The position numbers were made by a program, and so were the translations under genes. A stretch of DNA of 64,000 bases from an uncultured Desulfobacterales bacterium (GTDB taxonomy: Bacteria > Desulfobacterota > Desulfobaccia > Desulfobaccales > 0-14-0-80-60-11). Below the pieces are notes generated by a model. The model saw only the letters and a program-made list of their open reading frames with translations. It ran no database searches and was not told the origin of the DNA. The stretch lies in assembly GCA_964480485.1 (NCBI GenBank), contig CAYZOP010000007.1, positions 3,914-67,913 on the forward strand, written 5' to 3'. Shown here in pieces: positions 25,028 to 45,558 of this stretch. How positions within the stretch are numbered: position 1 is the stretch's first letter; every line of letters begins with the position of its first letter.

Positions 25028-26831
25028 TGTGGTCTTCGAACTCTTGGCGGAAGTTTTTCAGCACACTTAAGTAGGGCGCCGGCGCGGTCTGTCCCAGGGG
25101 ACAGAAGGAGGCGTCCATCATCACCGCAGCCAGGCGTTCCAGGAAGGCCAGGTCCCCCTGAGTGCCCTCTCCCCGGCAGATGCGGTTGACGGTCTTCAGG
25201 ATCTGGGGCGTGCCCTCCCGGCAGGGGGTACATTGGCCGCAGGACTCGTGGGCGAAGAACTTGGCCACGGCGCGTACGAAATCCACTACGCAGACGCTTT
25301 GATCCATGACCAGCATGGTGCCGGAGCCCAAGGCACCGCCCGCCTTGGCCATGGCGCCGAACTCCAGGGGCACGTCCAAGGCGTCTTTGGTCACTACGCC
25401 GGCGGAGGCCCCGCCGGTCTGGCAGAACTTAAAGGTGCTGCCGGCCCGCATACCCCCACCGTAAGTGTCGATGAGCTCCCGGAGGGTGATCCCCGCGGGC
25501 ACCTCCACGATCTGGGGCGTGTTCACGTGGCCGATGACCTGGTAGATCTTGGTGCCGGTGGTGTCAGCGGTCCCCAGGCCCTTGTACCAGGCGCCGCCCT
25601 TGTCGATGATGGCCGGCACGCTGGCCAGGGTTTCCACGTTGTTGACGATGGTGGGCTTGCTCCACAGGCCCGCCACTCCCGGGAAGGGCGGCTTCATGCG
25701 GGGGTAGCCCCGTTTGCCTTCGATGGACTCGATGAGCGCGGTCTCCTCGCCGCAGATGTAGCAGCCGAAGCCGGAGCGCACCTCGATGTCAAAGGAAAAT
25801 TCGGTGCCGAAGAGCTTGTTCCCCAAAAAGCCCCGGGCCCGGGCCTGTTCAATGGCCTTGTTGAGGCGGTACTTGGAGAGATAGTACTCGCCCCGCACGT
25901 AGATGTATCCCTGGGAGGCCCCCACCGCGAAGCCGGCGATGGCCATGCCCTCCAGCACTTTCTGGGGGTCGCCCTCCATGATATACCGGTCCTTGATGGT
26001 GCCGGGCTCGCCTTCGTCGGCGTTGCAGATGATGTATTTGGGGGTCACGGTCAGGGGCCGGGTGAAGGACCACTTGAGCCCGGCGGGGAAGCCGGCGCCG
26101 CCACGCCCCCGGATACCGGCAGTCTTCACTTCTTCCACCACCTGTTCCGGGGTCATGGTGGTAACCGCTTTTTTGAGGGCCTGCCAGCCGCCGGCGGCCA
26201 GGTAGTCGTCGATCTTTTCCGGGTCGATTTTCCCCACGTTCTTAAGCAGGATGAGCTCGCCCGAGGCCTGCTTGTAGGTGGTGAAGTCGTTGGTGGTGCA
26301 CTTTAAGGTGGTGAAGTCCGGCGCCTTGCCGGCCCGGTAGTCGGCCACGATCTGCCTGAACTTCTCCCGGGTGAGGTGGCCGTGCACCACCTCGTTGATC
26401 TGCATGGCCGGGGCCACCTCGCAGACTCCCAGGCAGGCGGAGAGCTCCAGGGTGAACAAGCCGTCCGGGGTGGTTTGCCCCAGGCCCACCCCCAACTCCT
26501 CCTGGGCAATCTCCAGGAGGTTTTCGGAGCCGCATACGTGACAGGGGGGCGACTCGCACATGCGGACGACATACCTGCCCTTGGGGCGCCAGGTGTACAT
26601 GGAGTAAAAGCTCATGACCCCGAAGATGTCGCTTCCAGGAACATTGAGCCCCAAGGCCAGCCGGTCCTGGACTTCCGGGGGCAGATAGCCCACCGCTTCC
26701 TGGACTTCCTGGAGGGCGGGCATGAGATTTCCGGGCTGACCCCGGTATTTGGCGATGATGGCGTCGATCTTCTCCCACTGGGCCGGGCTGAGTTGGGCCG
26801 GAGCGTGTGCCGCGCAGCTGCAATGTGTCAT
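24984..26831 (-). CDS. NAD-linked formate dehydrogenase diaphorase subunit, NuoE-NuoF fusion
   Basis: N-terminal NuoE-like 2Fe-2S domain (CESPPCHVCG...ACLGVCEVAP). This is followed by NuoF motifs GRGGAGFPAGLKW and ESCGQCTPCREG. Confidence 0.9.
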   Translation of the reverse strand: MTHCSCAAHAPAQLSPAQWEKIDAIIAKYRGQPGNLMPALQEVQEAVGYLPPEVQDRLALGLNVPGSDIFGVMSFYSMYTWRPKGRYVVRMCESPPCHVCGSENLLEIAQEELGVGLGQTTPDGLFTLELSACLGVCEVAPAMQINEVVHGHLTREKFRQIVADYRAGKAPDFTTLKCTTNDFTTYKQASGELILLKNVGKIDPEKIDDYLAAGGWQALKKAVTTMTPEQVVEEVKTAGIRGRGGAGFPAGLKWSFTRPLTVTPKYIICNADEGEPGTIKDRYIMEGDPQKVLEGMAIAGFAVGASQGYIYVRGEYYLSKYRLNKAIEQARARGFLGNKLFGTEFSFDIEVRSGFGCYICGEETALIESIEGKRGYPRMKPPFPGVAGLWSKPTIVNNVETLASVPAIIDKGGAWYKGLGTADTTGTKIYQVIGHVNTPQIVEVPAGITLRELIDTYGGGMRAGSTFKFCQTGGASAGVVTKDALDVPLEFGAMAKAGGALGSGTMLVMDQSVCVVDFVRAVAKFFAHESCGQCTPCREGTPQILKTVNRICRGEGTQGDLAFLERLAAVMMDASFCPLGQTAPAPYLSVLKNFRQEFEDHITAKKCAAGVCKLG

Positions 26832-26846: not shown

Positions 26847-29537
26847 TTACGCTTTTTCGACCTGCACGGCGCAGACCTTGTATTCCGGGATCTTGCACAC
26901 CGGGTCCAGGGCGGCGTTGGTGAGTTTGTTGGCCGCGGCCTCGGCGAAATGGAAGGGCAGGAATACCGTGCCGGGCACCGCCTTGCCGGAAACCTGGGCC
27001 CGAGCCGTGATCTCGCCCCGGCGGGAGCGCACCCTCACCCGGTCGCCCTCGGCGATGCCATATTTGGCGGCGTCCGCCGCGGCCATCTCCACCCGGCATT
27101 CCGGGGCTTTTTCCGCCAGCCCCGGAGCCCGGCGACTCATGGTGCCGGTATGGTACTGATAGAGGAGCCGGCCGGTGGTCAGATACAACGGATAGTCGGC
27201 ATCCGGCATCTCCGCCGGATCTTTGTGCTCGATGGCAAAAAAGGCCCCCAGGCCCCGGGCGAAGCGGTCCTTGTGCAGAAACACCGTGCCGGGGTGGTCC
27301 TCCGTGGGGCACGGCCACTGGATGCCCCCGGCTTCCAGGCGCCGGTAGGTAATGCCGGCGTAAGCAGGGGTGACCGTGCGGATTTCCTCGAAAATCTCCT
27401 CGGGGCCGGTGTAGTTCATGGGATAGCCCAGCCGGTTGCTGAGCTCGCAGATGATCTGCCAGTCGGGCTTGCAGCCGGGAAGCGGCGGAATGCACTGGCG
27501 CACCCGGGCCACCCGCCGCTCGGTATTGGCAAAGGTGCCGTCTTTTTCCGCAAAGGAGGCGGCGGGCAGCACCACGTCGGCCAGTTTGCCGGTCTCGGTA
27601 AGGAAGATATCCTGGACCACCAATAGATCCAGCTTCTGCATGGCCTTGATGGCATGCTCCGAATCGGGGTCCGACAGGGCCGGGTTTTCCCCCATGATGT
27701 AAAGGGCCTTTATCTCGCCGGCGGCGATGGCCGGGAGCATGTCGGTCATGGTCTTCCCCACCCAGGCGGGGAGGTTGTTCACGCCCCAGGCGGCCTCCAT
27801 TTTCTTGCGGGCCGCTTCGTCGGTCACCGGCTGGTAGCCGGAAAAGACGTTGGGCAGGCCCCCCATGTCGCAGGCGCCCTGGACGTTGTTCTGCCCCCGC
27901 AAGGGGTTGACGCCGCCCCCCCAGACGCCCACGTTGCCGCAGAGCATGGCGAGATTCGCCAGGGATTTGACGTTGTCGGTGCCCACGGTGTGCTGGGTGA
28001 TGCCCATGCAATAGACGATGGAGGCCACTTTGGCCCGGGCATAGAGGCGGGCCGCGGCCGTGATATCCGCCGCCGGGATGCCGGTGATCTGCTCCGCCCG
28101 TTCCGGGGTATAGTTCGCCACCGTTTCCTTGAGCGCCTCAAAGTTTTCCGTGCGTTCGGACACGTAGGCGGCATCATAGAGGTTTTCGGCGATGATGACG
28201 TGCATCATGGCGTTGAGCAGGGCGATATCGGTGCCCGGGGTCTGCCGGAGGTAGAGTTTGGCGAACTTCACCAGGTCCTGACGCCTCGGGTCCACCACGA
28301 TGAGGTCGGCGTTTTTGAAGCGCACCGCCCGCTTGATGCGGGCTGCGATGACGGGATGGTTTTCGTTGGTATTGGAGCCGATGACCAGGATGCAGTCGGC
28401 GTCCTCCAACTCGGCGATGGAGTTGGTCATGGCGCCGGAACCGAAAGACGCGGCCAGACCGGCCACGGTGGCGCTGTGTCAGAGACGGGCGCAGTGATCC
28501 ACGTGGTTGGTGCCTAACGCCGCCCGCATGAGTTTCTGCATGAGGTAGTTTTCCTCATTGGTCACTCGAGCGGAGCACCAGCCGCCGATCTTTTCGGGAC
28601 CGTGCTTTTCCCTGATCTCTTTCAGTTTGTCGGCCACAGAGTTAAGAGCTTCGTCCCAGCTCGCCGGCACCAGCTCCCCGTTTTTCCGGATGAGGGGCGT
28701 GGTGAGGCGGTCGGGATGTTGCACGAAGCCCCAGCCGAAGCGGCCCTTGACGCACAGGCGGCCGTCGTTGGGCGCGGCGTCGGCGCCCATGACCTTGACG
28801 ATTCTGCCGTCTTTGACGTGCACCTCCAACTGGCAGCCCACCCCGCAGTAAGGGCAGGTGGTCTTGACCTTGGTGCGCTCCCAGGGGCGGCCCCGGCCGA
28901 TGGCGTTCTTGTCCAAAAGGGCCCCCACCGGGCAGGATTGCACGCACTCCCCGCAGAAGACGCAGTCCGAGTCGATGTAGGGGTAATCCGCCTTGGCCAC
29001 GATCTTGTTGTGGGAGCCCCGGTAGCCGATGGCGATGGCGTCGTTCACCTGGCGCTCGGTGCAACCCCGGACACAGCGGCCGCACATGATGCACTTGGAG
29101 AAGTCCCGGACGATCATGGTGTTGTTGTCTTCAAAATAATACGTGGTATCCGGGGGGTTGGCGAAGGGTGGCGTGGGCACCTGGTAGCGGTAGGCCAGGG
29201 CCTGGAGCTCACACTCGCCGTTGGCCTCGCAGATCAGGCAGTTGTGATTGCCGCTGGCCAGGGCCAGCTCCAGCACCATCCGTCGGGCTTCGGCCACCTT
29301 GGGGGTCTCGGTCTTGACCACCTGGTTGGCCGCCGCCGGGGTGGCGCAGGCAGGCAGCAGGGTCCGGGCTCCTTCCACTTCCACCACGCACATGCGGCAG
29401 GAGCCGGTGGGCAGGGTGTCTTTCATCCAGCACAGGGTGGGGATGAACACCCCGGCTTGGCGCGCCACCTCCAGGATGGTCTGGCCGGGCTTTATGGCCA
29501 CGGTCATCCCGTCGAGGGTCAAAGTCGGTTCGGCCAT
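26847..29537 (-). CDS. fdhA: Formate dehydrogenase alpha subunit, selenocysteine-containing (NuoG-like Fe-S N-terminus plus molybdopterin domain)
   Basis: Track ORFs 28479..29537 and 26847..28466 are in the same frame (2691 nt). They are joined by a single TGA at 28479-28481 in the context [30 protein letters not shown], which is the canonical FdhA Sec site. Confidence 0.92.
28450..28481 (-). promoter_or_regulatory. Candidate bacterial SECIS hairpin following the fdhA UGA
   Basis: UGA + 12 nt + GUGGCC-GGUCU-GGCCGC (6-bp stem). The GGUCU loop starts 18 nt after the UGA, the same spacing and loop as my recollection of the E. coli fdhF SECIS. Confidence 0.6.
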
Positions 29538-31638: not shown

Positions 31639-31653
31639 TGGCACGGCCCTTGC
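31639..31653 (+). promoter_or_regulatory. Sigma54 (RpoN) promoter
   Basis: TGGCAC-GGCCC-TTGC matches the TGGCAC-N5-TTGC consensus exactly. It lies 68 nt upstream of the ATG at 31721. Confidence 0.7.
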
Positions 31654-31720
31654 TTTTAATCAAGAGCAAGCGGGAATCCAAAGCAGGTTTCTTTCACTGC
31701 TCGAACAAGGAGACCAGACC

Positions 31721-32629
31721 ATGTCCCGGCAAGATAATCAGGAACACCGTGGCCAGGAACGGCCCCAAATGACCGAAGTCTTCGGGTTTCAAGTGCCCAC
31801 CAGCGGATATTACCTGCACCGGGGACATGCCTGGGCCGTTATTGAGGCAGACGGCCACGTGCGGGTGGGGCTGGACGATTTCTCTCAGAAAGTCCTGGGG
31901 CCCGCCGATGCGGTCAAGCTGCCCGAAATCGGCAAAGCCTATTATCAGGACCACATCTGTCTGACCCAGGTGCGCCAGGGCCACAAGGCCCCCTTTCTGG
32001 CCCCGGTGGACGGCACGGTGGAGGCGGTCAACCAGTCTATTTTGAAACGCCCCGCCCTGATCCATGAAGACCCCTACAAAGAAGGCTGGCTCTTCACGGT
32101 TCGGCCCACCAACCTGAAGCGTAATCTGGAAAACCTGCTCTATGGCGAAGCCAGTGTGGCCTGGATCGACGAGGAATCCCACCGCCTGCTGCATCTCATG
32201 GAAACCAAGGTGGGGGTTACCCTGCCCAGCGGCGGTGCCTTCGTGGATGACATCTACGGCCACTACCCCTCCTTGGGGTGGCGTCCCCTGGTCCAGGACC
32301 TGTTTTTACCCATCCTGACCAGGACCTGGAGAAAACGGCCGTCGGCGCTGGAGGCCAGGGATATCGAGGAACTGCGCCGGGAGGTCTTTCGGGTCTTGAG
32401 CCGGGCGTCGGAAGATCGGGATTTTCGGATCGCCCTGATGGACCTCCGGACCGAGGTCCTGGACGCCTACCGGCTGCCCCCCGAAGCCAAGACCGCCATC
32501 CTGGCGGGTGATTTGACCTGGCTGAACGAGCATATCGGCGATCTTACCCAGAAACAGCTGATGTTCATCCTGTCCTGCCTGCTTCCGGGCAATGCCTTCT
32601 TTCGGGGCAAGGCGGCCAGGGCCAGCTGA
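31721..32629 (+). CDS. GcvH-like domain protein with conserved extension and helical tail (paralog 1)
   Basis: AAGGAGA RBS. Residues from about 30 to 140 align without gaps to the glycine-cleavage H fold (HAWA...VGLDDF....LG......LPEIG.........APVDG.V..VN.......P..I..DPY..GWLF). The lipoyl-Lys column is Gly. Confidence 0.75.
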   Translation: MSRQDNQEHRGQERPQMTEVFGFQVPTSGYYLHRGHAWAVIEADGHVRVGLDDFSQKVLGPADAVKLPEIGKAYYQDHICLTQVRQGHKAPFLAPVDGTVEAVNQSILKRPALIHEDPYKEGWLFTVRPTNLKRNLENLLYGEASVAWIDEESHRLLHLMETKVGVTLPSGGAFVDDIYGHYPSLGWRPLVQDLFLPILTRTWRKRPSALEARDIEELRREVFRVLSRASEDRDFRIALMDLRTEVLDAYRLPPEAKTAILAGDLTWLNEHIGDLTQKQLMFILSCLLPGNAFFRGKAARAS

Positions 32630-32773
32630 CTGCCGGTGGGAACAAGCGGACCCTGCCGGGTGGTCCCGATCGGGCCGGCAACCTCTCCTGACCCGGCCGG
32701 GCCCCGGATGACCAGGGAAAAACCTCGGGCTGCGCTGGGACGGCCCCAAAACCCCACGCAACGGTGAGCGACT

Positions 32774-32878
32774 ATGACAAAATCATTCCTCTACACCGTC
32801 TTCATCGCCATGGCAATGCTGGCGGGAACGGTGGCGTTATTCTTCATCTTCGCCATGGGGGGCAGGATCAACCCATAG
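32774..32878 (+). CDS. Candidate 34-aa single-TM small protein (below the ORF-track size cutoff)
   Basis: ATG 32774 to TAG 32876-32878 gives MTKSFLYTVFIAMAMLAGTVALFFIFAMGGRINP. It is hydrophobic, mostly has C or G in the third codon position, and lies between the GcvH-like gene and hdrA. Confidence 0.35.
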   Translation: MTKSFLYTVFIAMAMLAGTVALFFIFAMGGRINP

Positions 32879-33039
32879 GCTTGAACCAACCGGGCGGGGA
32901 TGCCATCATGAAACCATGGACAGGGCTGGGCTCGAAGGCCGGCGGTGCCTTCCCGGGCAGGCCCTTCCCTGGCGGGCCCCCGGAAAATTCTCGGATTTTG
33001 AAACCTCGGTGCTCCAAACCCTGAACCAGGGAGGATTGC

Positions 33040-36000
33040 ATGAATTCCAGCGGCTCTCCATCTGAAAGACACGGGGCGGTGTTGGTGGTAGGCGGCGGCA
33101 TCGCCGGGATCCAGGCAGCTCTGGACTTGGCCGATGCCGGGTTTTTCGTTCATCTGGCGGAGCAGAGCGCCGGCATCGGCGGCGCCATGGCCCAGTTGGA
33201 CAAAACCTTCCCCACCAACGACTGCGCCATGTGAATTATTTCGCCCAAGCTGGTCGAGTGCGGTCGGCACTTGAACATTGAGCTGTTGACGCTCACGGAA
33301 TTGGCAAGCCTGGAGGGAGAGGCGGGAAATTTCACCGCGACCCTGAGGAAAAAGCCCCGCTACGTTGACCTGGACAAATGCATCGGCTGCGGCCTGTGCG
33401 CCGAAAAATGCCCCAAAAAGGCGCCGGATGAATACAACCTGGGCCTGGCCAGGCGCAAAGCCATCTATGTGAAATACAGCCAGACGGTCCCCCTGAAATA
33501 CGCCATCGACCCGGAGACCTGCATCTACTTCAAAAAGGGCACCTGCAAGGCCTGCGAGAAGCATTGTCCCGCCGGCGCCATCAAACTGGACGACCAGGAG
33601 GAACGGCTCATCCGGAAGGTGGGAGCCGTGGTCCTGGCCACCGGTTTTCAGCCTTACAACCCAAAGGTCCTTACCGGCTACGGCTACGGCAGCCATCCGG
33701 CGGTGGTCACCAGCCTGGAATTCGAGCGCATCCTGAGCGCCTCCGGGCCCTTCGGCGGTCATCTGGTACGGCCGGCGGACCACGCCGAACCCAAGCGCAT
33801 CGCCTGGCTGCAGTGCGTCGGTTCCCGGGACACCAAGCCGGAGTCGCACACCTACTGCTCCGGCGTTTGCTGCATGTACGCCATCAAACAGGCGGTCATC
33901 GCCAAGGAGCATGCCGGCGGCCACCTGGACACCACCATCTTCTTCATGGACATGCGCACCTATGGCAAGGATTTCGAGCGTTATTACGAAAACGCCAGGG
34001 ACGGCCTGGGGGTGCGGTTCGTCCGCTTCCGGGTGCATTCCGTGGACCCTCTGGGTGGGGACCGCAAACAGGTGCGCATCACTTATTTGGAGGAGGACGG
34101 CACCCCCAGGCAGGAGCTATTCGACTTGGTGGTGCTCTCCATCGGCCTGGAGCCTGCCGCTGACACCCAGGCGCTGGCCGGGAGGCTGGGCGTGGAACTG
34201 GACCGTCATGGGTTCATCACCGCCAGCTCCTTTGCCCCGGTGGCCACCAGCCGTCCGGGGGTGTACGTCTGCGGCGCCTTGGCCGGCCCCAAGGACATCC
34301 CCTATTCGGTGATGGAGGCCTCGGCGGCGGCCGGGGCGGCGGCCAGTACCCTCAGCGACCAGCGCTTCACCCAGGTCCTGGAGAAGACCTACCCGGCGGA
34401 GCGCGACGTGACCCAGGAACCCCCCCGCATCGGGGTTTTCGTATGCAATTGCGGCATTAATATCGGCGGGGTGGTGGACGTCCACCAGGTGGCCGAATAT
34501 GCCCGCACCCTGCCCCAGGTGGTGCACGTGGAGGAAAACCTTTACACCTGCGCCCAGGACACCCAGGACCGCATGAGTGAAATCATTGCGGAACAAGGCT
34601 TAAACCGGGTGGTGGTGGCCGCCTGTTCGCCCCGGACCCACGAGGCCTTGTTCCAGGAAACCCTGAACAATGCCGGCCTGAACAAGTACCTCTTCGAGAT
34701 GGCCAACATCCGCAACCACGATTCCTGGGTGCATGCCCAGACCCCGGACTTGGCCACTCAAAAAGCCAAGGACCTGGTGCGCATGGCGGTGGCTAAAGCG
34801 GCGCTCCTAGGTCCCCTCACCGAGGCGGAGTTGCCGGTGACCCAAAGCGCCCTGGTGGTGGGCGGCGGTGTGGCCGGCATGACCTCGGCCCTCACGCTGG
34901 CCCGACAGGGCTATCCGGTCCACCTGGTGGAGCAAGGCGACGTCTTGGGCGGCGCCGCCCGGCGGCTGTTGGCCACCTACCGGGGTGAGGAGGTGGGGGC
35001 TTTCGTGGACCGGCTGACCGCCGAGGTTTCGGCCGAACCCCAGATCACCGTGCACCTCCAAAGTTCCCTGACAGAAGTCCAGGGGTTTGTGGGCAACTTT
35101 CAAACCAGCCTTAAGACCCCTTCAGGGCCGGTCACCATCCCTCACGGCGTGGCAGTGCTGGCCACCGGGGCCAAGGAATACCGGCCCCAGGAATACCTCT
35201 ACGGCGACCACCCCGGGGTGGTGACCCAACTGGAGCTGGACGAACTGCTCCGCCGGGAGGACCCCCGGCTGAATGGGCTGGAGAGCCTGGCCTTCATTCA
35301 GTGCGTGGGCTCCCGGGACGAACAGCACCCTTACTGCTCCAAGGTCTGCTGCACCCACTCGGTGAAGGCCGCCCTGGAGATCAAGCGTCGCCGGCCCGAA
35401 GCGGCGGTGACCATCCTGTATCGGGACATGCGGACCTACGGGCCCCGGGAGGACCTCTACATCGCCGCCCGGGAGGAGGGCGTGCTGTTCGCCCGCTACT
35501 CCCTGGACCGGAAACCCACGGTCAGTGAGGAGGACGGGCGGCTTTCTCTGAAGTTTGTGGACCCCATCCTGGGACGGGCGGTGGCGTTGCCGGTGGATCT
35601 CCTCTGCCTGGCCGCGGCCATCGAATCCCACCACGACCAGCAGTTGGCCCAGATGTTCCGGGTGCCATTAGACGGCGACGGCTGGTTTTTAGAGGCCCAC
35701 CAGAAGCTCAGGCCGGTGGACTTTGCCAACGACGGCATCTTCCTGTGCGGCATGGCCCACTATCCCAAGCCCCTGGAGGAAAGCATCGCCCAGGCCCAGG
35801 CGGCTGCAGCCCGGGCGGCCACGGTGCTGTGCAAGAGCAGCATCCGGGTGAGCGGGTTGGTGTCCCGCATCACCCCGGAACTCTGCTGCGGCTGCCAGAT
35901 CTGTGTCAATGTCTGCCCCTATCAGGCCATCAGCTATGACGAGGGCCGGGGGGTGGCCATGGTGAACGAGGCGTTGTGCAAGGGGTGCGGGGCCTGCGCT

Positions 36001-36087
36001 GCCGCCTGCCCCTGCGAGGCCCCCCTGCTTATGGGGTTCACCCATCGTCAGTTGTATGCCCAGATCAAGAATGCCCTAGCGTTTTGA
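33040..36087 (+). CDS. hdrA: HdrA-like heterodisulfide reductase subunit A, selenocysteine-containing, extended (about 1015 aa) two-Rossmann form
   Basis: Track ORFs 33040..33234 and 33271..36087 share one frame. The TGA at 33232-33234 sits in [30 protein letters not shown], the HdrA Cys/Sec site. There are two GxGxxG motifs ([24 protein letters not shown]) and several 4Fe-4S CxxCxxCxxxCP motifs. A GGGAGG RBS is present. Confidence 0.9.
33232..33273 (+). promoter_or_regulatory. Candidate SECIS hairpin after the hdrA UGA
   Basis: CGAGUGC-GGUCG-GCACUUG (7-bp stem, 33255-33273). The loop contains GGUC and starts 27 nt after the UGA, further than in fdhF. Confidence 0.4.
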
Positions 36088-36107: not shown

Positions 36108-36617
36108 ATGGAAGAAAGACCATTTGAGCCTAGACTGCTGGCATTTGTCTGCAACTGGTGCGCCTACGGCGCCGCAGACCTGGCCGGGGTGAGCCGGCTG
36201 CAATACCCGGCCAATGTCCGGCTGCTTCGGGTCATGTGTTCCGCCACGGTGTCGCCGCACCACATCCTCAGGGCCTTGCAGAGCGGGGCCGACGGTATCC
36301 TGGTGGGCGGCTGACACCTGGGGGACTGCCATTACCTGTATGGTAATCACATGACGCAAAAAAGGATGCTGTTCTTGCAGGATTTCTTATCCTTTGTGGG
36401 CCTGGGAGGGAGGTTGCGCCTGGAATGGATCTCCTCGGCCGAGGCCAACAAGTTTGTCCAGGTCGTCACTGAATTCACCGAGCAGATTCGCCGCTTGGGG
36501 CCCAGCCCCCTGCGCACCGGCCAGGAGGCGTTGGCCGCTCTGCACCTGCCGCCGGTCTCGGAGGCCGCCGGCCGGGCTGCCTGCCCCTGCGGCCACGCAC
36601 CCCAGGTGGTGGTATAG
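36108..36617 (+). CDS. mvhD: MvhD-like (methyl-viologen-reducing hydrogenase delta) 2Fe-2S protein, selenocysteine-containing
   Basis: MEERPFEPRLLAFVCNWCAYGAADLAGVSRLQYP...ADGILVGG-U-HLGDCHYLYGN...RLRLEWISSAE. The TGA at 36312-36314 aligns with the Cys of the MvhD motif GGCHxGDCHY. Track ORFs 35976..36314 and 36351..36617 are in frame. Confidence 0.88.
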
Positions 36618-36626
36618 GTACCGCTT

Positions 36627-37445
36627 ATGGCTGAGCTACATGACACTGTGCGCGAGTGGCTGGAAAGCGGCAGGGTGGACCTCTTCCTGGGCTATCGGGA
36701 GGTGACCGGTCATCCCCTGCCTTACGCCTTTACCAAAGAAAACCTGGAGGAATTGACCGAGCTGGAAACCAGCCTGAGCCGCTATCCTTTGGAGAAACTG
36801 GCAGCCGGCATCCTGGCGGTCCAGCCCGAGCTTAAGATCGGCCTCTTGGGCCGGGACTGCAACCGTCGGGCGGTAAACGTGCTCTTGGTGCACCAGCAGG
36901 TGGCCCCGGGACAGATTGAGGTGCTGGAGGTGAATTGCTGTCCTTCGCCCTTAAAGCCCCGACCCGACTGCTCCTCGCTTTCACCCCGGACTTACGGTCC
37001 GGTGAAGCTGGCCGAGGGCATCAACAACAACCTGACGCCGGCTCAATTCGAGCAGTACGGCCAGACGGAGCGTTTTGACCGCTGGCTGTATGAATTTCAG
37101 AAGTGCCTGAAATGTTACGGCTGCCGGGATATCTGCCCGGTGTGCTTCTGCCGGGAGTGCTCCCTGGAGCATGGGGACCTGGTGGAGACCGGGGCTCTGC
37201 CACCGGAAGTGCCGCTCTTCCATCTCATCCGGGCGGTGCACATGGCGGGCCGCTGCATCGACTGCGGCCTGTGCGAGGATGCCTGTCCGGTGGACATACC
37301 CCTGCGGCTGCTGTACCGGAAAACCAATCAGATCGTCAAGGACCTGTTCGGCTACGAAACCGGCCTGAGCCTGCGGCAGCCTCCCTTCAGCCTCCTGGGT
37401 GAACGCGCCCCGGGCGGGGGCGAGGTCAAGCAGGCGGCGACCTAA
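36627..37445 (+). CDS. 4Fe-4S dicluster protein, putative electron-transfer subunit between MvhD/HdrA and FdhA
   Basis: C-terminal half: CLKCYGCRDICPVCFC...CIDCGLCEDACP. The N-terminal 150 aa or so are unassigned. Confidence 0.72.
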   Translation: MAELHDTVREWLESGRVDLFLGYREVTGHPLPYAFTKENLEELTELETSLSRYPLEKLAAGILAVQPELKIGLLGRDCNRRAVNVLLVHQQVAPGQIEVLEVNCCPSPLKPRPDCSSLSPRTYGPVKLAEGINNNLTPAQFEQYGQTERFDRWLYEFQKCLKCYGCRDICPVCFCRECSLEHGDLVETGALPPEVPLFHLIRAVHMAGRCIDCGLCEDACPVDIPLRLLYRKTNQIVKDLFGYETGLSLRQPPFSLLGERAPGGGEVKQAAT

Positions 37446-37470: not shown

Positions 37471-39516
37471 ATGTACAAACTGGTTCCTTCGGTATGTTCC
37501 TATTGCGGCACCGGCTGCGGGGTGTTGTTTCAGGTTCTGGATGGTCAGATTCTTGGGACCCTGCCGCTGAAAACCCACCCGGTGAACGAGGGCAAACTGT
37601 GCATCAAGGGCTGGAACCTGCATGAATACGTGAACAGCTTCATGCGCTTGCAAGCCCCCCGCATCCGCATCAACGGGCGCCTGCACCAGGTTACCTGGGA
37701 CCGGGCCATCGGGTTTTGCGCCGACCGGCTCAAGAGCGTCATCGCCCAGCACGGGCCGGACAGCGTCGGAGTGCTGGCCTCGGCCAAAATCACCAACGAG
37801 GAGAACTACCTCTTGCAGAAATTCGCCCGGGCGGTGGTGGGCACCAACAATGTTGACCACTGCGCCCGCCTCTGACACTCCTCCACGGTGGTAGGTCTTA
37901 CCGCCGCCTTCGGGAGTGGGGCCATGACCAACTCCATCGCCGAGATCGAGGATGCGGGGTGCATTTTCGTCATCGGTTCCAACACTTCCGCCTGCCATCC
38001 CCTCATCGCCCGCCGGGTGCTCCGGGCCCGGGAAAAGGGGGCCAAGCTGCTGGTGGCCGACCCCCGGCGCATCCACCTAGGTCTCTTCGCCGACGTGGCC
38101 GTCAATCAGCGGGTAGGGAGCGACGTGGCCCTGCTCAATGGTCTGATGCACCTGATTCTCAGAAATGGTTGGGAGGACCGGGACTACATTGCCGAACGCA
38201 CCGAGGGCTTCGCGGAACTGGAACAGTCCCTGGCAGACTATCCGCCGGAGCGCGTCCAGGCCATCACCGGCGTCAGCCCGGCAGACCTGGAGAAGCTGGC
38301 CCGGCTTTATGCCACCCACCGGCCAGCCGCCATCCTCTACACCATGGGCATCACCCAGCACACCACCGGGGTGGACAACGTCAAGGCCATCTGTAACCTG
38401 GCCATGCTCACCGGCAACGTGGGCTTTCCCAGCTCCGGGGTCAACCCCTTGCGGGGGCAGAACAACGTCCAGGGCGCCTGCGACATGGGCGGCCTGCCCA
38501 ATGTCTTTCCCGGCTACCAGGCGGTGAACGTCCCGGATCACCATGCCAAATTTTCCAAGGCGTGGGGCCGGCCCCTGTCGGACAAGCCCGGGCTGACCAT
38601 CATGGAAATGGTCCAGGCCATCGACGCCGGCAAGATGAAGGCCCTGTACGTGGTGGGGGAAAATCCCAAACTCAGCGATCCGGACATGAACCACCTGCGC
38701 CACGCCATGCAGAAGCTGGATCTGCTCATCGTCCAGGATCTCTTTCTTTCGGAGACCGCCCAGGGCGCGGACGTGGTCTTCGCCGCGGCCTCCACCGCCG
38801 AGAAGGACGGCACGTTCACCAACACCGAAAGACGGTGCCTGCGCATCAACAAGGCTATCGAACCGGTGGGTCAGAGTTTGCCCGACTGGGAGATCATCTG
38901 CCGGCTGGCCACCGCCATGGGCTACCCCATGACCTACGGCAGCGCCGCCGAGATTTTCCGAGAGATCGCTTCCCTGACCCCCAGCTACGGCGGCATGAGC
39001 TATGAGCGCCTGGGGATTGACGGATTGCAGTGGCCCTGCCCCACCCCTGAACATCCGGGGACCACATACCTGCATCGGGACCGGTTCACCCGGGGGCGGG
39101 GGAAGTTCCACGTAATCCCGTATCAGGACCCGGCGGAGCTGCCGGATGCCGACTATCCCTTTTTCCTGACCACCGGCCGGACCTTCGTCCATTACCACAC
39201 CGGCACCATGACCCGGGTGTCAGCTCATTTGGACCGGGAGCAGCCCACAGGCTTTGTGGAAATCAACCCGGAGGACGCGGCCAGACTGGACATTCAGGAA
39301 GGAGACCACCTGCTGGTGTCCTCCAAGCGGGGACGCATCGAGGTACCGGCCCACATCAGCCACTCGGTGCTGCCCGGCAACCTGTTTCTGCCCATTCACT
39401 TCGGCGAAAACCCCACCAACGTGCTGACCAGCGCCGAGGCCCTGGACCCCCTGGCCAAAATTCCGGAGTTCAAAGTGAGCAAGGCCCGGGTGGAAAAATT
39501 GGTGGAAGCATGCTAA
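37471..39516 (+). CDS. fdhA: Formate dehydrogenase catalytic subunit, cytoplasmic, selenocysteine-containing (paralog 2)
   Basis: MYKLVPSVCSYCGTGCG 4Fe-4S N-terminus with no Tat signal. The TGA at 37873-37875 sits in [30 protein letters not shown]. Track ORFs 37399..37875 and 37888..39516 are in frame (2046 nt from ATG 37471). Confidence 0.9.
37873..37905 (+). promoter_or_regulatory. Candidate SECIS hairpin after the fdhA-2 UGA
   Basis: GGUGGUA-GGUCU-UACCGCC (7-bp stem including one G-U pair, 37887-37905). The loop starts 18 nt after the UGA. Confidence 0.6.
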
Positions 39517-39626: not shown

Positions 39627-41921
39627 ATGAGTCCCGAAAGAAAATCCTACAACCTGGCCATAGTGGGAGCCGGCCGGCAAGGGGTGGCCATTTTGGAGGC
39701 CCTGGTGCCCCCCCGGGGCGAGGCGCAGCCCCTCAAGGTTGTGGGAGTGGCGGACTTGAACCCGGAGGCCCCCGGCATCCTGTACGCCTACCGGCATAAC
39801 CTGTTCGTCACCGTGGATGTCGCCGACCTGTTCCACCTCCCGGATCTGGATATCATCGTCAACGCCACCGGCCACCCGGAAGTCTCGGTGCAGATAGATG
39901 AGCAACAGCCGGGCAGGTTCATAGTCCTCAATGTGGACCGCCCGGTCCAGCTCGAGGACTTCTGGGACCTCATCTCCATGAACCTCTCCCCGGTCCGGGA
40001 GGATGCGCCGCTCACCGTGGGGATTGTGGGCGGCGGCAAGGGCGGCTATGAAGTCCTGCAACAACTCGCCAGGGAGCCGCGCTATCCCCAACGGGTCAGG
40101 GTCATCGGCGTGGCAGACACCAACCATGAGGCCCAGGGAATGGTTTTGGCTCGAGAGCTCCAGATTCCCATCTACACCGAGTATAGGGATCTCCTCAAGG
40201 CCGAACCGGATCTGGTGCTGGAACTTACCGGTGACCCCCGGGTGCGGGAGCGGGTTATCCAGGAAAAGGGCCCCAACACCCAGATCATCGACCACGTCAA
40301 GGCCCGGCTGTTCTGGGACCTCCTGAAGCGGGAAGAGGAGCGGTTGCGCCACCGGGTCACCCAAGAAATCAAGCTGGCCGGACAGCGCAGCCGCTTTCAG
40401 AGGATTTTCGACCACCTGCCGGACCCGGTCATCGTCTTGCGCTCCAATTACCTGGTGGAGGAGGCCAACCTGCCCTTTCTGGAACGCTTCCATAAGCAGG
40501 CCGAAGAGGTCATCGGCAGGCCGTGCTACGAGGTGTTCCATCAGTTCGAGGAACCCTGCGACCGCAAAGGCATGACCTGTCCGTTGCCCCGCGTGTTGGA
40601 GAACCATCAGACCGCCCAGGTGCTGCAGACGTCCCTTAATCCCGACGGCACCATCCGCTACGATGAGATCACCATGTCGCCGTTGTGCGTCCCGGAACGG
40701 GCGCAGAAACGGGTCATTGAAGTCATTAAAGATGTCACCGACCGCAAACAATTGGAAGCAGGGTTGCAGAAGTCGGAACAGCGGGCCCAGGAACTGCTGA
40801 CCCAGGCCATCAAGGACAAGGGGTTTTTGGAAACCATTGTCAACGGCATCGCCGATCACATGATGGTCATCGACCTGGATTACCGCATCGTGGAAGTGAA
40901 CCGGGCCCTCTTGGAGATGGTGGGACTGAAGCGCGACCAGGTGGTGGGCAAGCATTGCTACGAAGTCTCCCACCATTTGCACCAGCCCTGCACGATACCC
41001 GATCATCCCTGCCCGCTGCAGGAAGCCGTGGCCTCCGGCAAGGCCGCCTCTGCTACCCATGTGCATTTTGACAAGGAAGGCCGGGAGCGCTATTACCACG
41101 TGGTCTGTCACCCCCTGCGGGACGAACAGGGCCGCATCCACCGGGTGGTGGACCTGTCCCGGGATATCACCCGGGACGTGATAGACCGTATGCGGACCCT
41201 GCACGAAGACAAGATGGCTTCCCTGGGGAAACTGGCGGCCAGTGTGGTCCACGAGATCAACAATCCGCTCACCGGCATCCTCAATTTCGTCAAACTGATG
41301 CAAAGCATGGTGGAGACGGGGACGCCCAGCGGAGACGAGTTAAACGAGATGCGCCGCTACCTGGACATGGTGTATCAGGAGACCTCCCGGGTGAGCCGGA
41401 CCTTGGCCAACCTCCTCACTTTTTCCCGGAAGCAGAAACCGGAATTCAAGCCGCTGGATCTCAATATCGTGTTGGAAGGGGCGTTATCCCTGGTGAGCTA
41501 TCAGATGCGCCTCCAGGGCATCGCACTGGAGCGCAAGCTCACTCCTGACCTGCTGCCGGTATTGGCGGACAAGGGTCAGATGACGCAGACCTTTATCAAT
41601 CTCTTCTTGAATGCCTTTGATGCCATGCCCCAAGGAGGCCGGCTCATCCTGGAGACCAAAAACACCCGGCGCGGCGAGGTGCTGATCAAGGTCTCCGATA
41701 CCGGCAAGGGCATCCCCAAGGAGCATATCTCGCAGATCTTCGAGCCCTTCTTTACCACCAAAAAAACCTGCGCCGGTGCAGGGTTAGGGCTCTCCGTGGT
41801 CTATGGCATCATCCGGGATCACAAGGGCACCATCAAAGTGGACAGCGTGGTGGGCCAAGGCACCTCTTTTACCATTCGCCTGCCGGCTCAGAAGGTGGGG
41901 GAAGTACATGTTGCCGCATAA
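39627..41921 (+). CDS. Cytoplasmic sensor histidine kinase: tandem Rossmann-like N-terminal domains, two Cys-motif PAS domains, HisKA, HATPase
   Basis: No TM segment. GxGxxG occurs twice (IVGAGRQG, IVGGGKGG). PAS motifs CYEVFHQFEEPCDRKGMTCP and CYEVSHHLHQPCTIPDHPCP. H-box HEINNPLTG. ATPase blocks DTGKGIP and GLGLS. Confidence 0.88.
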   Translation: MSPERKSYNLAIVGAGRQGVAILEALVPPRGEAQPLKVVGVADLNPEAPGILYAYRHNLFVTVDVADLFHLPDLDIIVNATGHPEVSVQIDEQQPGRFIVLNVDRPVQLEDFWDLISMNLSPVREDAPLTVGIVGGGKGGYEVLQQLAREPRYPQRVRVIGVADTNHEAQGMVLARELQIPIYTEYRDLLKAEPDLVLELTGDPRVRERVIQEKGPNTQIIDHVKARLFWDLLKREEERLRHRVTQEIKLAGQRSRFQRIFDHLPDPVIVLRSNYLVEEANLPFLERFHKQAEEVIGRPCYEVFHQFEEPCDRKGMTCPLPRVLENHQTAQVLQTSLNPDGTIRYDEITMSPLCVPERAQKRVIEVIKDVTDRKQLEAGLQKSEQRAQELLTQAIKDKGFLETIVNGIADHMMVIDLDYRIVEVNRALLEMVGLKRDQVVGKHCYEVSHHLHQPCTIPDHPCPLQEAVASGKAASATHVHFDKEGRERYYHVVCHPLRDEQGRIHRVVDLSRDITRDVIDRMRTLHEDKMASLGKLAASVVHEINNPLTGILNFVKLMQSMVETGTPSGDELNEMRRYLDMVYQETSRVSRTLANLLTFSRKQKPEFKPLDLNIVLEGALSLVSYQMRLQGIALERKLTPDLLPVLADKGQMTQTFINLFLNAFDAMPQGGRLILETKNTRRGEVLIKVSDTGKGIPKEHISQIFEPFFTTKKTCAGAGLGLSVVYGIIRDHKGTIKVDSVVGQGTSFTIRLPAQKVGEVHVAA

Positions 41922-43254
41922 GAAGATCTCGATTTTGGTGGTGGACGACGAGCCGAGCATCCGGGAATCCCTGAGCGGCTGGCTGAAACGGGCCGGCTAC
42001 CAGGTGGACACCGCCGCCGACGGCTTCACGGCATTGGCCAAGAACCGGGAGACCCACTTCGACATCATCATTGTGGATGTCAAGATGCCGGAAATGGATG
42101 GTCTTACCCTGTTGCAGCAACTGAAGGAGAACGGCAGCGAAGCCGGCATCCTCATGATGACCGCCCACGGTGATATCCATGACGCCGTGCAGGCCATCAA
42201 GTTGGGGGCCTATGATTACCTGCTCAAGCCCTTCGAGCTGGAGGAATTATCCTTCACCATCGGCAAGATGGTGGAGATGCAGACCCTGGCCATGGAGAAC
42301 CTGATTTTAAAGGAACGCTTGGCCACCATCAGCCGCTTTGAAAACCTGGTGGGCCAGTCCCCGGTCATGCTCAAGCTGTTTGAGACCATTGTCGACGTGG
42401 CCAAGACCGACGCCACCGTCCTGATCACCGGGGAGACCGGCACCGGCAAGGAGCTGGTGGCCCGGGCCATTCACGCCCAAAGCCCCCGCTGTTATGCCCC
42501 GTTCATCGCCATCAACTGCGGCGCCTTCACCGAGCACCTGCTGGAAAGCGAGATCTTCGGACATGAAAAAGGCGCCTTCACTGACGCCAAATACACCAAA
42601 AAGGGTCGCCTGGAGATGGCCAACGGTGGCACCCTCTTCCTGGACGAAGTGGGGGACATCTCCATGAAAATGCAGATTGATCTCCTGAGGGTCCTGGAAA
42701 CCCACGAATTCACCCGGGTGGGGGGGACCACCATGCTGAAAAGCGATTTCCGGGTCATCGCCGCCACCCATCAGGACCTCAAAGAGGCCATTCGCCACAA
42801 AACCTTTCGGCAGGACCTTTTCTACCGTTTGAACGTCTTCCATATCGAGGTGCCGCCCCTCAGGGAACGACCGGAGGACATCCCGCTGTTGGCCCACCAC
42901 TTCCTGCGGCGCTATGCGGCGGAAACCAAGAAAAAGATCGATGCCATCGATAAAAAGGCGCTGGAGGCCATGAAGCAATACTCCTGGCCGGGTAATGTGC
43001 GGGAATTGGAGAATGCCATCGAACGGGCGGTGGTGGTGGGTAAGGGGCGGACCATCAAACTCTCCGACCTGCCCTTTATCACCGCCGGGGAACCTGCGGA
43101 ATACGGGGAACTTTCCCTGGAGGAAATGGAACGGCAGCATATCGCCCGGGTGCTGGCTACCAAGGGAAGGAATCTCTCCCACGTCGCCCGGGTGCTGCGC
43201 ATCAACCGCTCAACGCTTTATGAGAAGATAAAAAAATACGGCCTCACCACCTGA
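41908..43254 (+). CDS. Sigma54-dependent response regulator (NtrC family: REC-AAA+-HTH)
   Basis: ILVVDDEPSIRE receiver domain. GETGTGKE Walker A and GAFTDA (GAFTGA-type sigma54 contact loop). C-terminal Fis-type HTH. The ATG at 41908 overlaps the kinase stop by 14 nt. Confidence 0.92.
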   Translation: MLPHKKISILVVDDEPSIRESLSGWLKRAGYQVDTAADGFTALAKNRETHFDIIIVDVKMPEMDGLTLLQQLKENGSEAGILMMTAHGDIHDAVQAIKLGAYDYLLKPFELEELSFTIGKMVEMQTLAMENLILKERLATISRFENLVGQSPVMLKLFETIVDVAKTDATVLITGETGTGKELVARAIHAQSPRCYAPFIAINCGAFTEHLLESEIFGHEKGAFTDAKYTKKGRLEMANGGTLFLDEVGDISMKMQIDLLRVLETHEFTRVGGTTMLKSDFRVIAATHQDLKEAIRHKTFRQDLFYRLNVFHIEVPPLRERPEDIPLLAHHFLRRYAAETKKKIDAIDKKALEAMKQYSWPGNVRELENAIERAVVVGKGRTIKLSDLPFITAGEPAEYGELSLEEMERQHIARVLATKGRNLSHVARVLRINRSTLYEKIKKYGLTT

Positions 43255-43467: not shown

Positions 43468-44349
43468 TCAGGTGCTGTGCAGGAACTCGTGCACCAGGCG
43501 ATCCCATCCCAGTTGGGGATAGGCGCCATAGACGTCGTCCAGGATGGCGCCGCCGGAGGGCAGCGTCACTCCCGCCACAGACTCCAGCATGCCCAGGAGA
43601 CGTTGGGCCTCATGTTCTATCCAGGCGACGTTGCATTGGCCGAAGAGCATCTTTTCCAGATCCGGTTTGAGGTGGGTGGGGGAGACCAAAAAGAGCCAGC
43701 CCTCGCCATACGGGTCATCATGGATCAGGCGCGGGTTGTCCCGAATCTTGGGATTAACTGCGTCGATGATGCCGGTGAGGGGGGCCAGCACCGGGGCGGT
43801 CTTGCCCTGGCGGGAGAGCATCAAGGCTGTCTGGTCGGCGAACACCTTTTCTCCCACCTCCGGGAGGCTCACTTCCTCGGGCGGACCCAAAACCCGCTGG
43901 CAAAAATCGTCCATGCCGAGGCGGACCCGGCCGGCATTTTCCAGGGCCACCCAGGTATGTCCCCGGTGGAGGAAACTGGAGACGGGCACCATAATCCCCA
44001 TGACCTCCTGCACTCGGGGCCGCTCCGGAGCCAGAAAGAAGTCAAACTGCTCCTCCAGCAGCTCATCAAAGGAACATTCATGACAGAGGCTGGTCATCAT
44101 CAGGCGGCATTTCTGCTGGTCGCCGAAGCGCTGCCGCATCTTTTCCTCCCACGGCAGGACCTCACGATGCTCCGGGACCGGCTTCGGGCGTCCTTTCCAC
44201 TTGGCCAGGTTGGCAGCCGCAGCTTCCGTCAAGGCCCGGTCCAGCTCACAATGTTCGCAATCAAACTCTTTATCGCAGATCTTGTAGTCAATTACTCCAG
44301 CTTCCATCCAGATACAAGGCTGCCGGCTTTCGGGAAATTCATGTGCCAT
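43468..44349 (-). CDS. Cys-rich N-terminal domain fused to a GcvH-like domain (paralog 2)
   Basis: MAHEFPESRQPCIWMEAGVIDYKICDKEFDCEHCELD...CRLMMTSLCHEC, followed by a GcvH-like fold (HTWVAL...VRLGMDDF...LPEVG...APLTG...DPYGEGWLF). The start is taken at ATG 44349, inside track ORF 43468..44406. Confidence 0.75.
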   Translation of the reverse strand: MAHEFPESRQPCIWMEAGVIDYKICDKEFDCEHCELDRALTEAAAANLAKWKGRPKPVPEHREVLPWEEKMRQRFGDQQKCRLMMTSLCHECSFDELLEEQFDFFLAPERPRVQEVMGIMVPVSSFLHRGHTWVALENAGRVRLGMDDFCQRVLGPPEEVSLPEVGEKVFADQTALMLSRQGKTAPVLAPLTGIIDAVNPKIRDNPRLIHDDPYGEGWLFLVSPTHLKPDLEKMLFGQCNVAWIEHEAQRLLGMLESVAGVTLPSGGAILDDVYGAYPQLGWDRLVHEFLHST

Positions 44350-44430
44350 GGTCCTGCCCTGCCTTTCCCCTGATCTTGGGAAGGACGGGGTGCGGCGGTC
44401 TCCCACCCCGTCCCTGCCGGGTGCAAGCGT

Positions 44431-45072
44431 TCATTGTCTTCCCTTCCAGGTTCTCTTGTCCCAGTTGTCCCAGCCCTCAAAACCGCGCCGCGTTGAGGGA
44501 GTGGTCAGGTTCCGCAGGAAGAACCCCTGGACCAGCCGCCGCCAGCCCAACGCCGGGAAATGGCCGAACACGTCATCGACGATGGTCCCGCCATCTTGCA
44601 GGGTGTAGCCCACTTTGGTATCCAAAAGTTCCAGCAGGCGGTGGGTTTCCTCGTCGATCCACGCGGCGTTGTCCTGCCCATAGCACAGATTGAACAAGTT
44701 TTGCTGGAGATTGATGGGCCTCATGTGGAAGAGCCAGCCCTCGCCGTACGGGTCGTCATGGATCAGAGCCGGCTTCTCCCGAACCCGCTCATTGATCTCG
44801 GTGACCATGCCGTCCACCGGGGCGACGAAGGAGGCCTTGCTGCCATGCCGGAGCAGGGCCATGCAAATGTGGTCCTGATAATAGACCTTGCCCACTTCCG
44901 GCATCTGAATGCCGTCGGCCGGTCCCAGGATCTTCTGGGAAAAATCATCTAGACCAACCCGCACCAGGTCCGTCTTTTCCACCACGGCCCAGGCATGGCC
45001 CCGGTGCAGATAATAGGTCTCGGTGGGTACCCGGAACCCGAAGACCTCCGCCATGTTGGTAGGGGTTTTCAT
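44431..45072 (-). CDS. GcvH-like domain protein (paralog 3)
   Basis: The first 180 aa or so are by eye about two-thirds identical to the 31721 product (MAEVFGFRVPTETYYLHRGHAWAVVE...). A GGAGGG RBS is present. Confidence 0.78.
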   Translation of the reverse strand: MKTPTNMAEVFGFRVPTETYYLHRGHAWAVVEKTDLVRVGLDDFSQKILGPADGIQMPEVGKVYYQDHICMALLRHGSKASFVAPVDGMVTEINERVREKPALIHDDPYGEGWLFHMRPINLQQNLFNLCYGQDNAAWIDEETHRLLELLDTKVGYTLQDGGTIVDDVFGHFPALGWRRLVQGFFLRNLTTPSTRRGFEGWDNWDKRTWKGRQ

Positions 45073-45109
45073 GTCTTTTCCCTCCTCTGGGGGTTTGATT
45101 CGGGAGAGA

Positions 45110-45124
45110 GCAATGAGCGTGCCA
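45110..45124 (-). promoter_or_regulatory. Sigma54 (RpoN) promoter
   Basis: The minus strand reads TGGCAC-GCTCA-TTGC. It lies 38 nt upstream of the ATG at 45072. Confidence 0.7.
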
Positions 45125-45473: not shown

Positions 45474-45483
45474 CCAAAATAAA

Positions 45484-45558
<75 letters not shown>

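Follow-up and report, generated by a model that had tools for sequence, protein, structure and literature searches.

An in-frame UGA codon in hdrAA

The 64,000-nucleotide stretch of contig CAYZOP010000007.1 analyzed here, from an uncultured Desulfobacterales bacterium and called the window below, carries at positions 33040..36087 of the plus strand a gene that we named hdrAA (hdrA-hdrA), predicted to encode two HdrA units fused into a BamE-type dimer. Its coding sequence comprises 1015 codons, including a putative selenocysteine (Sec) codon at residue 65, and its full-length homologues are colinear with it from residue 1. A Shine-Dalgarno-like GGAGG, read from the sequence at 33030..33034 (+), lies 5 nucleotides (nt) before the ATG at 33040. 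The sole internal stop between this ATG and the stop TGA at 36085-36087 is the TGA at 33232-33234 (+), which corresponds to residue 65 of the pair Cys62-x-x-Sec65. The initial annotation had placed this TGA in frame with ATG 33040; this proved correct, and reading through it gives a product of 1015 amino acids (aa).

Mechanical detection of open reading frames (ORFs) cuts the gene into 33040..33234 (64 aa) and 33271..36087 (938 aa, with a TTG start). Two publicly available contigs, one from JGI with 100% identity and one from NCBI with 85% identity, carry gene calls that split it in the same manner, into 64 aa plus 938/945 aa, and the ORF list and these calls together confirm what had been anticipated, namely a 64-aa fragment followed by a false start at TTG 33271. 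The 938-aa product has been deposited publicly as P0001 (NCBI) and as P0121 (JGI), the latter under the name 'heterodisulfide reductase subunit A'. Over the gene, the JGI contig shows 100% identity, the TGA included, and codon 65 is also TGA in the separate NCBI assembly, at 85% nucleotide identity; the recurrence of the codon in these two sources rules out an assembly error. The cutting of such selenoprotein genes in two by gene callers is a known systematic artefact.

To place residue 65 among its relatives, homologues were taken from a database of 5.8 billion proteins, and the best 120 matches were examined. They fall into two length classes, with 64 full-length proteins of 997-1041 aa and 56 shorter ones of 863-950 aa. 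In all 64 full-length homologues, a cysteine aligns with residue 65 (FPTNDCSM-C-ILSPKLVE). Each of the 56 shorter proteins starts past the site, 5 to ~150 residues downstream and at many different start codons, and these entries are truncated gene calls; P0001, the 938-aa call for the window gene itself, is one of them. A codon census was then performed over 80 related genome loci, the best of which showed 64% identity, together with the window itself. Among the 102 motif instances, the codon at the site was TGA in 73, TGC in 21 and TGT in 8, and never TAA or TAG. Relatives from the genome scan numbered at least 595. In the family alignment of 145 sequences, which was used for residue conservation, the column holds C in 86 sequences and U in 58, so that Cys or U is found in 144 of the 145, the last one having a gap. 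The coding sequence is conserved on both sides of the UGA. The solved archaeal HdrA chains 8RVU, 5ODC and 7BKB, used as targets for sequence alignment, also align unbroken across the TGA site and carry a Cys there. In the HdrA of M. maripaludis, the homologous residue is Sec197, bonded to a neighbouring Cys beside the flavin adenine dinucleotide (FAD) (PMC13518236). The homologues, the solved HdrA chains and Sec197 all agree with the earlier statement that HdrA proteins have Cys, or Sec, at this position.

If the TGA were a real stop, created by a nonsense mutation, in a pseudogene or through an assembly error, only fragments would be made, and the first of them, residues 1-64, would hold the Rossmann GGGIAG needed by the FAD domain. 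The strong conservation of the protein on both flanks is difficult to reconcile with such a loss, as is the presence of TGA at the same codon in 72 other motif instances, with TAA and TAG never replacing it, and its recurrence in the identical JGI contig and the 85%-identical NCBI assembly. Synonymous sites downstream are moreover constrained specifically in the TGA copies, as described below. Gene callers do treat the codon as a stop, and the downstream RNA, folded as a single sequence, gives no significant result; even so, we regard a real stop as next to impossible.

The hairpin downstream of the UGA and proposed selenocysteine decoding in the window

In bacteria, SelB recognises a GGU-containing apical loop located ~16-37 nt after the UGA, as in E. 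coli fdhF and in the bSECISearch criteria for the selenocysteine insertion sequence (SECIS). A SECIS-like hairpin was delineated at 33251..33277 (+) from its fold, from synonymous-site entropy and from its invariance in relatives. Its 5' arm (33254-33261) is UCGAGUGC, its loop (33262-33266) is GGUCG and its 3' arm (33267-33274) is GCACUUGA, with two outer pairs formed by 33251-52 and 33276-77. The hairpin lies 19-42 nt past the UGA and has a fold energy of -12.8 kcal/mol over 36 nt. Its loop begins 27 nt past the UGA, farther than in E. coli fdhF. Like E. coli fdhF and the Rfam SECIS_3 family, the hdrAA element is a hairpin inside the coding sequence, soon after the UGA, with a GGU(C) apical loop.

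Analysis of third-position entropy revealed that codons +6 to +11 are constrained in the TGA copies (0.00-0.71 bits) compared to the Cys copies (1.11-1.81 bits). Entropy was equal in the two groups over the ten upstream codons, over codons +1 to +5 and over codons +12 to +20. The constrained string CUGGUCG-AGGU-CGGCCGG is found in 55 of the 73 TGA copies. The window belongs to a minority variant, tied to the replacement of Val by Cys at +9 (the VECGRH group), in which the hairpin is shifted by 5 nt; its core is identical in 10/10 copies of this variant. In the 85%-identical relative, every synonymous change falls outside the loop and the six-pair GAGUGC/GCACUU core. The codons for the VECGRH peptide vary in the seven Cys-type genes that encode it. 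Stem pairing reached 95% in register, compared to 32-42% when slid. At least three hairpin solutions were observed at the HdrA Sec site, although the peptide encoded there is nearly the same: one has an AGGU loop, one a GGUCG loop, and the third, from a paralogue that encodes MLDVGRHP, a GGUC loop. Each type is frozen within its own group (examples at L026:9782, L040:9308, L058:4975 and L062:10890).

The TTG called as the start of the 938-aa product (33271-33273) sits in the 3' arm of this conserved hairpin and has no Shine-Dalgarno sequence ahead of it. A split protein, in which translation stops at 33234 and restarts at this TTG or near it, with the 64-aa and 938-aa parts joining non-covalently, would profit from the short distance of 36 nt between TGA and TTG, but it would lose the 12 residues in between, which are equally conserved, and the Cys-type homologues are continuous. 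The truncated calls in relatives, starting 5 to ~150 residues downstream, do so at so many positions that no conserved restart exists. Taken together, these observations make a split protein extremely improbable.

Candidate Sec codons are not limited to hdrAA in this region. Three other genes of the window, mvhD and two fdhA, each hold a further Sec-type TGA, which brings four Sec-type genes (hdrAA, mvhD and the two fdhA) within 11 kb. The Rfam SECIS_3 model matches exactly the two fdhA Sec sites, both scores being below the gathering score, and it does not match the hdrAA element. All four selenoprotein genes are cut at the same points by the public calls on the JGI and NCBI contigs. Reassignment of UGA, as in genetic codes 4/25, was also considered and rejected: gyrA, pfk, metG, moaA, mutS and menA end at an ordinary TGA stop and encode products that follow their family profiles through to the C terminus, so that TGA is a normal stop in housekeeping genes and a reassigned code is excluded.

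It could be argued that the UGA is read mainly as Cys or as another standard amino acid, for example under selenium limitation, giving a Cys enzyme. Misinsertion of Cys at a Sec-UGA is known in some bacteria, and Cys is functionally acceptable at this site, where 29 of the 102 motif instances have it. A conserved and TGA-specific hairpin with a GGUC-type loop is, however, a requirement of SelB-dependent decoding, and a Cys reading, which we consider very improbable, is also opposed by the four Sec-type genes that lie within 11 kb and of which two match SECIS_3.

Several observations weigh against Sec decoding directed by this hairpin. First, informative covariation is absent: 8/10 pairs never vary and shuffle controls were not exceeded, which means that the hairpin signal is one of conservation and not of covariation. 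Secondly, the single-sequence fold of the 64 nt after the UGA is unremarkable for DNA of 64% GC (z = -0.87). Thirdly, no family matched the hdrAA element in the Rfam scan at either threshold. Finally, selA, selB, selD and tRNA-Sec were not found in the 64-kb window, where NCBIfam profiles were run on 30 ORFs; because these genes are absent from the window, the Sec machinery of the host is presumed.

The hairpin nevertheless has the position just past the UGA and the G/U apical loop expected of a bacterial SECIS element, albeit one defined without covariation or an Rfam model, and we assign it as such on its sequence features. The selenoprotein proposed in the initial annotation is supported by the Cys homology, the downstream hairpin restricted to TGA copies, the three neighbouring Sec-type TGAs and the pattern of mis-annotation. 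On six independent lines, UGA 33232-33234 is judged to be a genuine Sec codon, with Sec insertion itself predicted: the codon would be decoded as Sec65 under the direction of the downstream hairpin with the GAGUGC-GGUCG-GCACUU core.

Protein architecture and gene neighbourhood

The protein joins two HdrA-like units head to tail, with their domains in permuted order, and is of the BamE type. HdrA unit 1, at approximately aa 13-450 (33076..34389, +), was delimited by Pfam and by alignment to HdrA 154-517; it is a TrxR-like FAD domain with an inserted ferredoxin domain. This unit has the GGGIAG motif, the Cys62/Sec65 pair, Lys283, which is invariant, and a cluster motif formed by C259/C273/C277/C278. 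Its inserted domain, recognized by Pfam as a 2x[4Fe-4S] ferredoxin, occupies aa ~105-190 (33352..33609, +). Residues 14-385 align without a break to HdrA 154-517 (337 bits), across the TGA.

The homologue of the archaeal HdrA N-terminal domain is internal here, at approximately aa 455-590 (34402..34809, +; alignment to HdrA 4-164), and contains a 4-Cys motif, C469/C471/C504/C529, whose cysteines are invariant. The alignment of residues 454-614 to HdrA 4-164 (185 bits) covers this N-terminal cluster domain and the start of the second FAD domain. HdrA unit 2, at approximately aa 600-935 (34837..35844, +), was recognized by its similarity to unit 1 and is a second FAD-type Rossmann module with a GGGVAG motif. 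Residues C755/C766/C770/C771 are present in it, without the CxxC/U pair and without an inserted ferredoxin domain. The C-terminal 2x[4Fe-4S] ferredoxin domain, at approximately aa 940-1015 (35857..36084, +), is supported by Pfam, by the HdrA alignment and by eight invariant cysteines. Residues 830-1013 align to HdrA 471-653, a stretch that takes in the last part of the TrxR domain and the ferredoxin domain at the C terminus.

The two flavin modules share 31-34% identity (E 1e-26). The two GxGxxG motifs previously pointed out are indeed present, GGGIAG at 18-23 and GGGVAG at 608-613, with 590 residues between them instead of the ~580 given earlier. An extra flavin module is therefore real, but it is a second, degenerate HdrA unit within a permuted set of domains and not a generic pyridine-nucleotide-disulfide-oxidoreductase module. 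Likewise, the protein is unusually long only when compared to the archaeal HdrA of ~650 aa, since the ~1010-aa architecture is common in Thermodesulfobacteriota and is shared by 120/120 of the best database matches.

Unit 1 combines the features of the HdrA family, namely a TrxR-like FAD domain, GxGxxG, CxxC/U, the Lys, whose role is taken from the literature, and a 4-Cys cluster. The inserted, N-terminal cluster and C-terminal ferredoxin domains of HdrA are all present, permuted over the two fused units. In the 145-sequence alignment, the 28 cysteines of the seven 4-Cys motifs are invariant and Lys283 of unit 1 is found in 145/145 sequences; its unit-2 equivalent, position 776, is E, K, Q, L or D (K776 here). 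In total, two FAD sites and seven conserved 4-Cys motifs are predicted from these features. As in BamE, according to its published description, two HdrA-like modules are found with the hallmarks in unit 1 only and with seven 4-Cys sites. The FAD module of unit 2 is degenerate and probably non-bifurcating and structural. The NCBIfam HdrA models score under their cutoff (962 vs 1100).

Downstream of hdrAA, mvhD (36108..36617, +; PF02662, 169 bits) encodes a FlpD/VhuD-like [2Fe-2S] adaptor with a UGA at 36312-36314, residue 69 (..ILVGG-U-HLGDCHY..). Its Sec codon is TGA in 38 of the 51 related instances, and public calls split the gene into 67/68 aa plus 88/95 aa. No Rfam SECIS match was found for mvhD at either threshold, and a single fold of its downstream RNA gave -9.3 kcal/mol. 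The next gene (36627..37445, +) encodes a 272-aa iron-sulfur (Fe-S) protein with two CxxCxxCxxxCP motifs and only weak Fer4 matches; it is present in 33 of the 80 loci. In D. autotrophicum, the gene that holds this place in the hdr loci bears the label 'FdhB' (PMC2702500). It is followed by fdhA (37471..39516, +; TIGR01591, 808 bits vs a cutoff of 666), the catalytic subunit of a formate dehydrogenase, with a UGA at 37873-37875, residue 135 (..DHCARL-U-HSSTV..). Its SECIS_3-like element at 37870-37928, with the loop GGUCU, scored 53.9 bits (E 1.8e-10), under the gathering score of 63, and public calls split the gene into 134 and 529/530 aa.

The gene-content scan around hdrAA covered 30.4 to 45 kb of the window. 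The order of genes is GcvH-like, hdrAA, mvhD, the 272-aa Fe-S gene, fdhA, a PAS histidine kinase, a sigma-54-dependent response regulator and two further GcvH-like genes. mvhD is present in 72 of the 80 related loci, and in most of them it directly follows the fused HdrA gene. Of the 15 closest orthologue loci, 13 have the order hdrAA-mvhD-FeS-fdhA, the contig ending first in the remaining two. A megablast plasmid search gave no match, which points to a chromosomal context.

An NAD-type Fdh cluster, made up of a NuoE/F-like gene and an fdhA resembling NuoG, lies on the opposite strand, 4-8 kb from hdrAA. This second fdhA (26847..29537, -) has its Sec353 codon, TGA, at 28479-28481 (..HVDHCARL-U-HSATV..) with a SECIS_3 match at 28426-28484 (E 1.4e-6). 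Its product carries an N-terminal NuoG-like 2Fe-2S/4Fe-4S extension, and public calls split it into 352 and 539 aa. The adjoining fused NuoE/NuoF-like gene, read from the sequence, lies at 24984..26831 (-), and the pair looks like a soluble formate dehydrogenase linked to NAD(P) or ferredoxin. A gene at 23321-25027 (+), of ~525-568 aa and with coding-type GC content at third codon positions, adjoins this cluster, and the identical JGI contig has a call for it too; no Pfam or NCBIfam match was found for it. The two formate dehydrogenase clusters are separated by a bacterial large signal recognition particle RNA gene (29826-30086, -; RF01854, 131.8 bits), and tRNA-Cys and tRNA-Gly are found at 45399-45558 (-).

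A perfect sigma-54 -24/-12 consensus, TGGCACGGCCCTTGCT, was matched at 31639..31654 (+), 67 nt before the GcvH-like gene that precedes hdrAA (31721..32629, +; gene scan). A second perfect match (45109..45124, -) precedes the other GcvH-like genes, found by the same scan at 44431..45072 and 43468..44406 (-). Two perfect matches in the window compare with ~0.06 expected by our own calculation, and each lies 37-67 nt before a GcvH-like gene. The gene scan also revealed an AtoS/AtoC-like sensor kinase and sigma-54 activator (39627..43254, +) between the two sigma-54 sites. No terminator or sigma-70-like promoter was found on the plus strand in 32630-33040. It is possible that the site at 31639-31654 promotes the whole cluster, which would then be co-transcribed, and the GcvH-like genes may form one regulon with the hdrAA-fdhA cluster. 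The three GcvH-like proteins carry extensions and, by eye, are without the canonical lipoyl-lysine (ESVK -> VRQG, with the K shifted by two).

Two HdrA-type genes within a few kb were observed in many genomes. Those at L064:5276-8416 and L064:9352-12372 both encode ~1000-aa fused dimers, and mvhD follows at least the first of them. Pairs are also present in L018, L019, L028, L031, L034, L037, L041, L042, L050, L053, L055, L056, L060, L063, L072 and L078. In some of these pairs a Cys version stands beside a Sec version, in keeping with Sec/Cys isoenzymes.

Proposed function and comparison with known systems

The comparisons above establish the reading frame, the homology between Cys and Sec at the site, the constraint on the RNA, the arrangement of domains and the synteny. 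We propose that 33040-36087 very probably encodes a single 1015-aa Sec selenoprotein, a dimer of the BamE type likely to act in a formate-linked bifurcating complex. By analogy with Fdh/Mvh-HdrABC and BamDEF, HdrAA, Sec-MvhD, the small Fe-S protein and Sec-FdhA would assemble into a cytoplasmic flavin-based electron-bifurcating (or confurcating) complex, either formate-oxidising or CO2-reducing. The formation of this complex, the direction of electron flow and the acceptors are predicted. FdhA would hand on electrons, by way of the Fe-S protein and MvhD, to the FAD of unit 1, where they would be split, the low-potential branch running via the inserted ferredoxin domain to ferredoxin and the other branch being of high potential. 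The Cys62-Sec65 pair would lie beside this bifurcating FAD, which Lys283 would mark as the bifurcating flavin. The roles proposed for such a Cys-Cys/Sec pair include a selenenylsulfide relay or gate (PMC13518236; bioRxiv 10.64898/2026.04.10.717634).

One element of the known complexes is missing, which weighs against the proposed assignment to a bifurcating complex: genes for HdrB, HdrC, HdrD or a BamD-like (CCG-domain) protein were not found in 30.4-45 kb. Because these CCG-domain partners are absent, the protein is HdrA-like and not a true heterodisulfide reductase. A class II benzoyl-CoA reductase was rejected as well, since bamB, bamC, bamD and bamGHI were not found around hdrAA. The lack of an HdrBC-, HdrD- or BamD-type gene, together with the flanking sigma-54-linked GcvH-like genes, the activator and the kinase, suggested to us that the Fdh-MvhD-HdrAA module might use a GcvH-like carrier as its high-potential partner instead of a CCG-domain disulfide reductase. 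We rate this idea as a long shot; if true, the GcvH-like partner would be a distinct output solution for HdrA-type electron bifurcation.

Regarding significance, hdrAA adds one example to a well-documented kind, the Sec-HdrA of sulfate-reducing and syntrophic bacteria, and Sec-containing forms of HdrA, MvhD, FdhA and BamE have all been described before. Concepts are unchanged by hdrAA, and some potential for novelty lies in the missing output subunit and the sigma-54-linked GcvH-like genes. A Sec-containing BamE-type dimer coupled to a formate dehydrogenase in an uncultured Thermodesulfobacteriota-like host is useful beside the structures of BamE and Sec-HdrA. The gene calls have a wider bearing: 56 of the 120 closest database entries are truncated at the Sec site and the four genes of the window are cut in two likewise, so that metagenome reconstructions of sulfate reducers and syntrophs undercount and mis-size electron-bifurcating modules.

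Archaeal HdrA of the Mvh/Vhu/Fdh-HdrABC electron-bifurcating complexes (5ODC, 8RVU, 7BKB) shares its domains and its ..LDKTFPT.DC..C/U.. motif with hdrAA, as well as an MvhD adaptor and Fdh as an alternative electron input. It is, however, a single unit of ~650 aa that homodimerises, whereas hdrAA comprises two diverged, fused units in permuted order, and in contrast to archaeal HdrABC the window cluster has neither HdrBC nor the chemistry of the coenzyme M-coenzyme B heterodisulfide (CoM-S-S-CoB). The SECIS elements also differ, being of the 3' untranslated region type in archaea and of the in-frame type in bacteria. The HdrA of M. maripaludis resembles hdrAA in having Sec in the identical position, next to the FAD (PMC13518236).

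Among bacteria, HdrA, FrhD/MvhD and FdhA were listed as selenoprotein families in 2006, when hdrA-hdrA fusions were also noted in Deltaproteobacteria (PMC1794560). Desulfobacterium autotrophicum has hdrA/hdrL-mvhD-fdhB-fdhA loci with Sec in HdrA/HdrL, MvhD and FdhA (PMC2702500), and the window shares with them a large HdrA-type gene, mvhD, an FdhB-like Fe-S gene and fdhA, with Sec. In Desulfococcus multivorans, hdrA, mvhD, fdhA and BamE were each annotated with a UGA and a SECIS, under two locus tags each (PMC5109826). The HdrL-MvhD-FeS cluster of Syntrophobacter fumaroxidans, Sfum_0822-0824, is abundant in sulfate-grown cells (PMC5947623); both this species and D. autotrophicum belong to the Deltaproteobacteria (Thermodesulfobacteriota). 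The published HdrL consists of HdrA with NADH-binding and glutamate-synthase-like domains; the second module in the window is HdrA-like. In the window, mvhD follows hdrAA, and the second Rossmann module gives short generic NAD(P)/FAD-binding matches at aa 599-649. This module also aligns to HdrA unit 1. Filing the protein as HdrL or as BamE proper was considered and not adopted.

A further close counterpart is BamE from Geobacter metallireducens, the HdrA-like subunit of class II benzoyl-CoA reductase, which cryo-electron microscopy revealed to be two HdrA units fused into a chain of ~1000 aa, their domains permuted and their clusters numbered E1-E7 (bioRxiv 10.64898/2026.04.10.717634). Its TrxR1 holds the bifurcating FAD, Lys280 and the Cys59-Cys62 pair, while its TrxR2 has a non-bifurcating, probably structural FAD and Gln768 (same preprint). 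Compared through published residue numbers and description rather than by direct alignment, C62, U65 and K283 of the window protein stand at a constant +3 offset from Cys59, Cys62 and Lys280 of BamE. In both cases, unit 2 is without the hallmark residue and an MvhD-like adaptor is encoded alongside. The difference lies in the partners: hdrAA has no neighbouring bamB, bamC, bamD, bamG, bamH or bamI, and is accompanied instead by FdhA and the small Fe-S protein.

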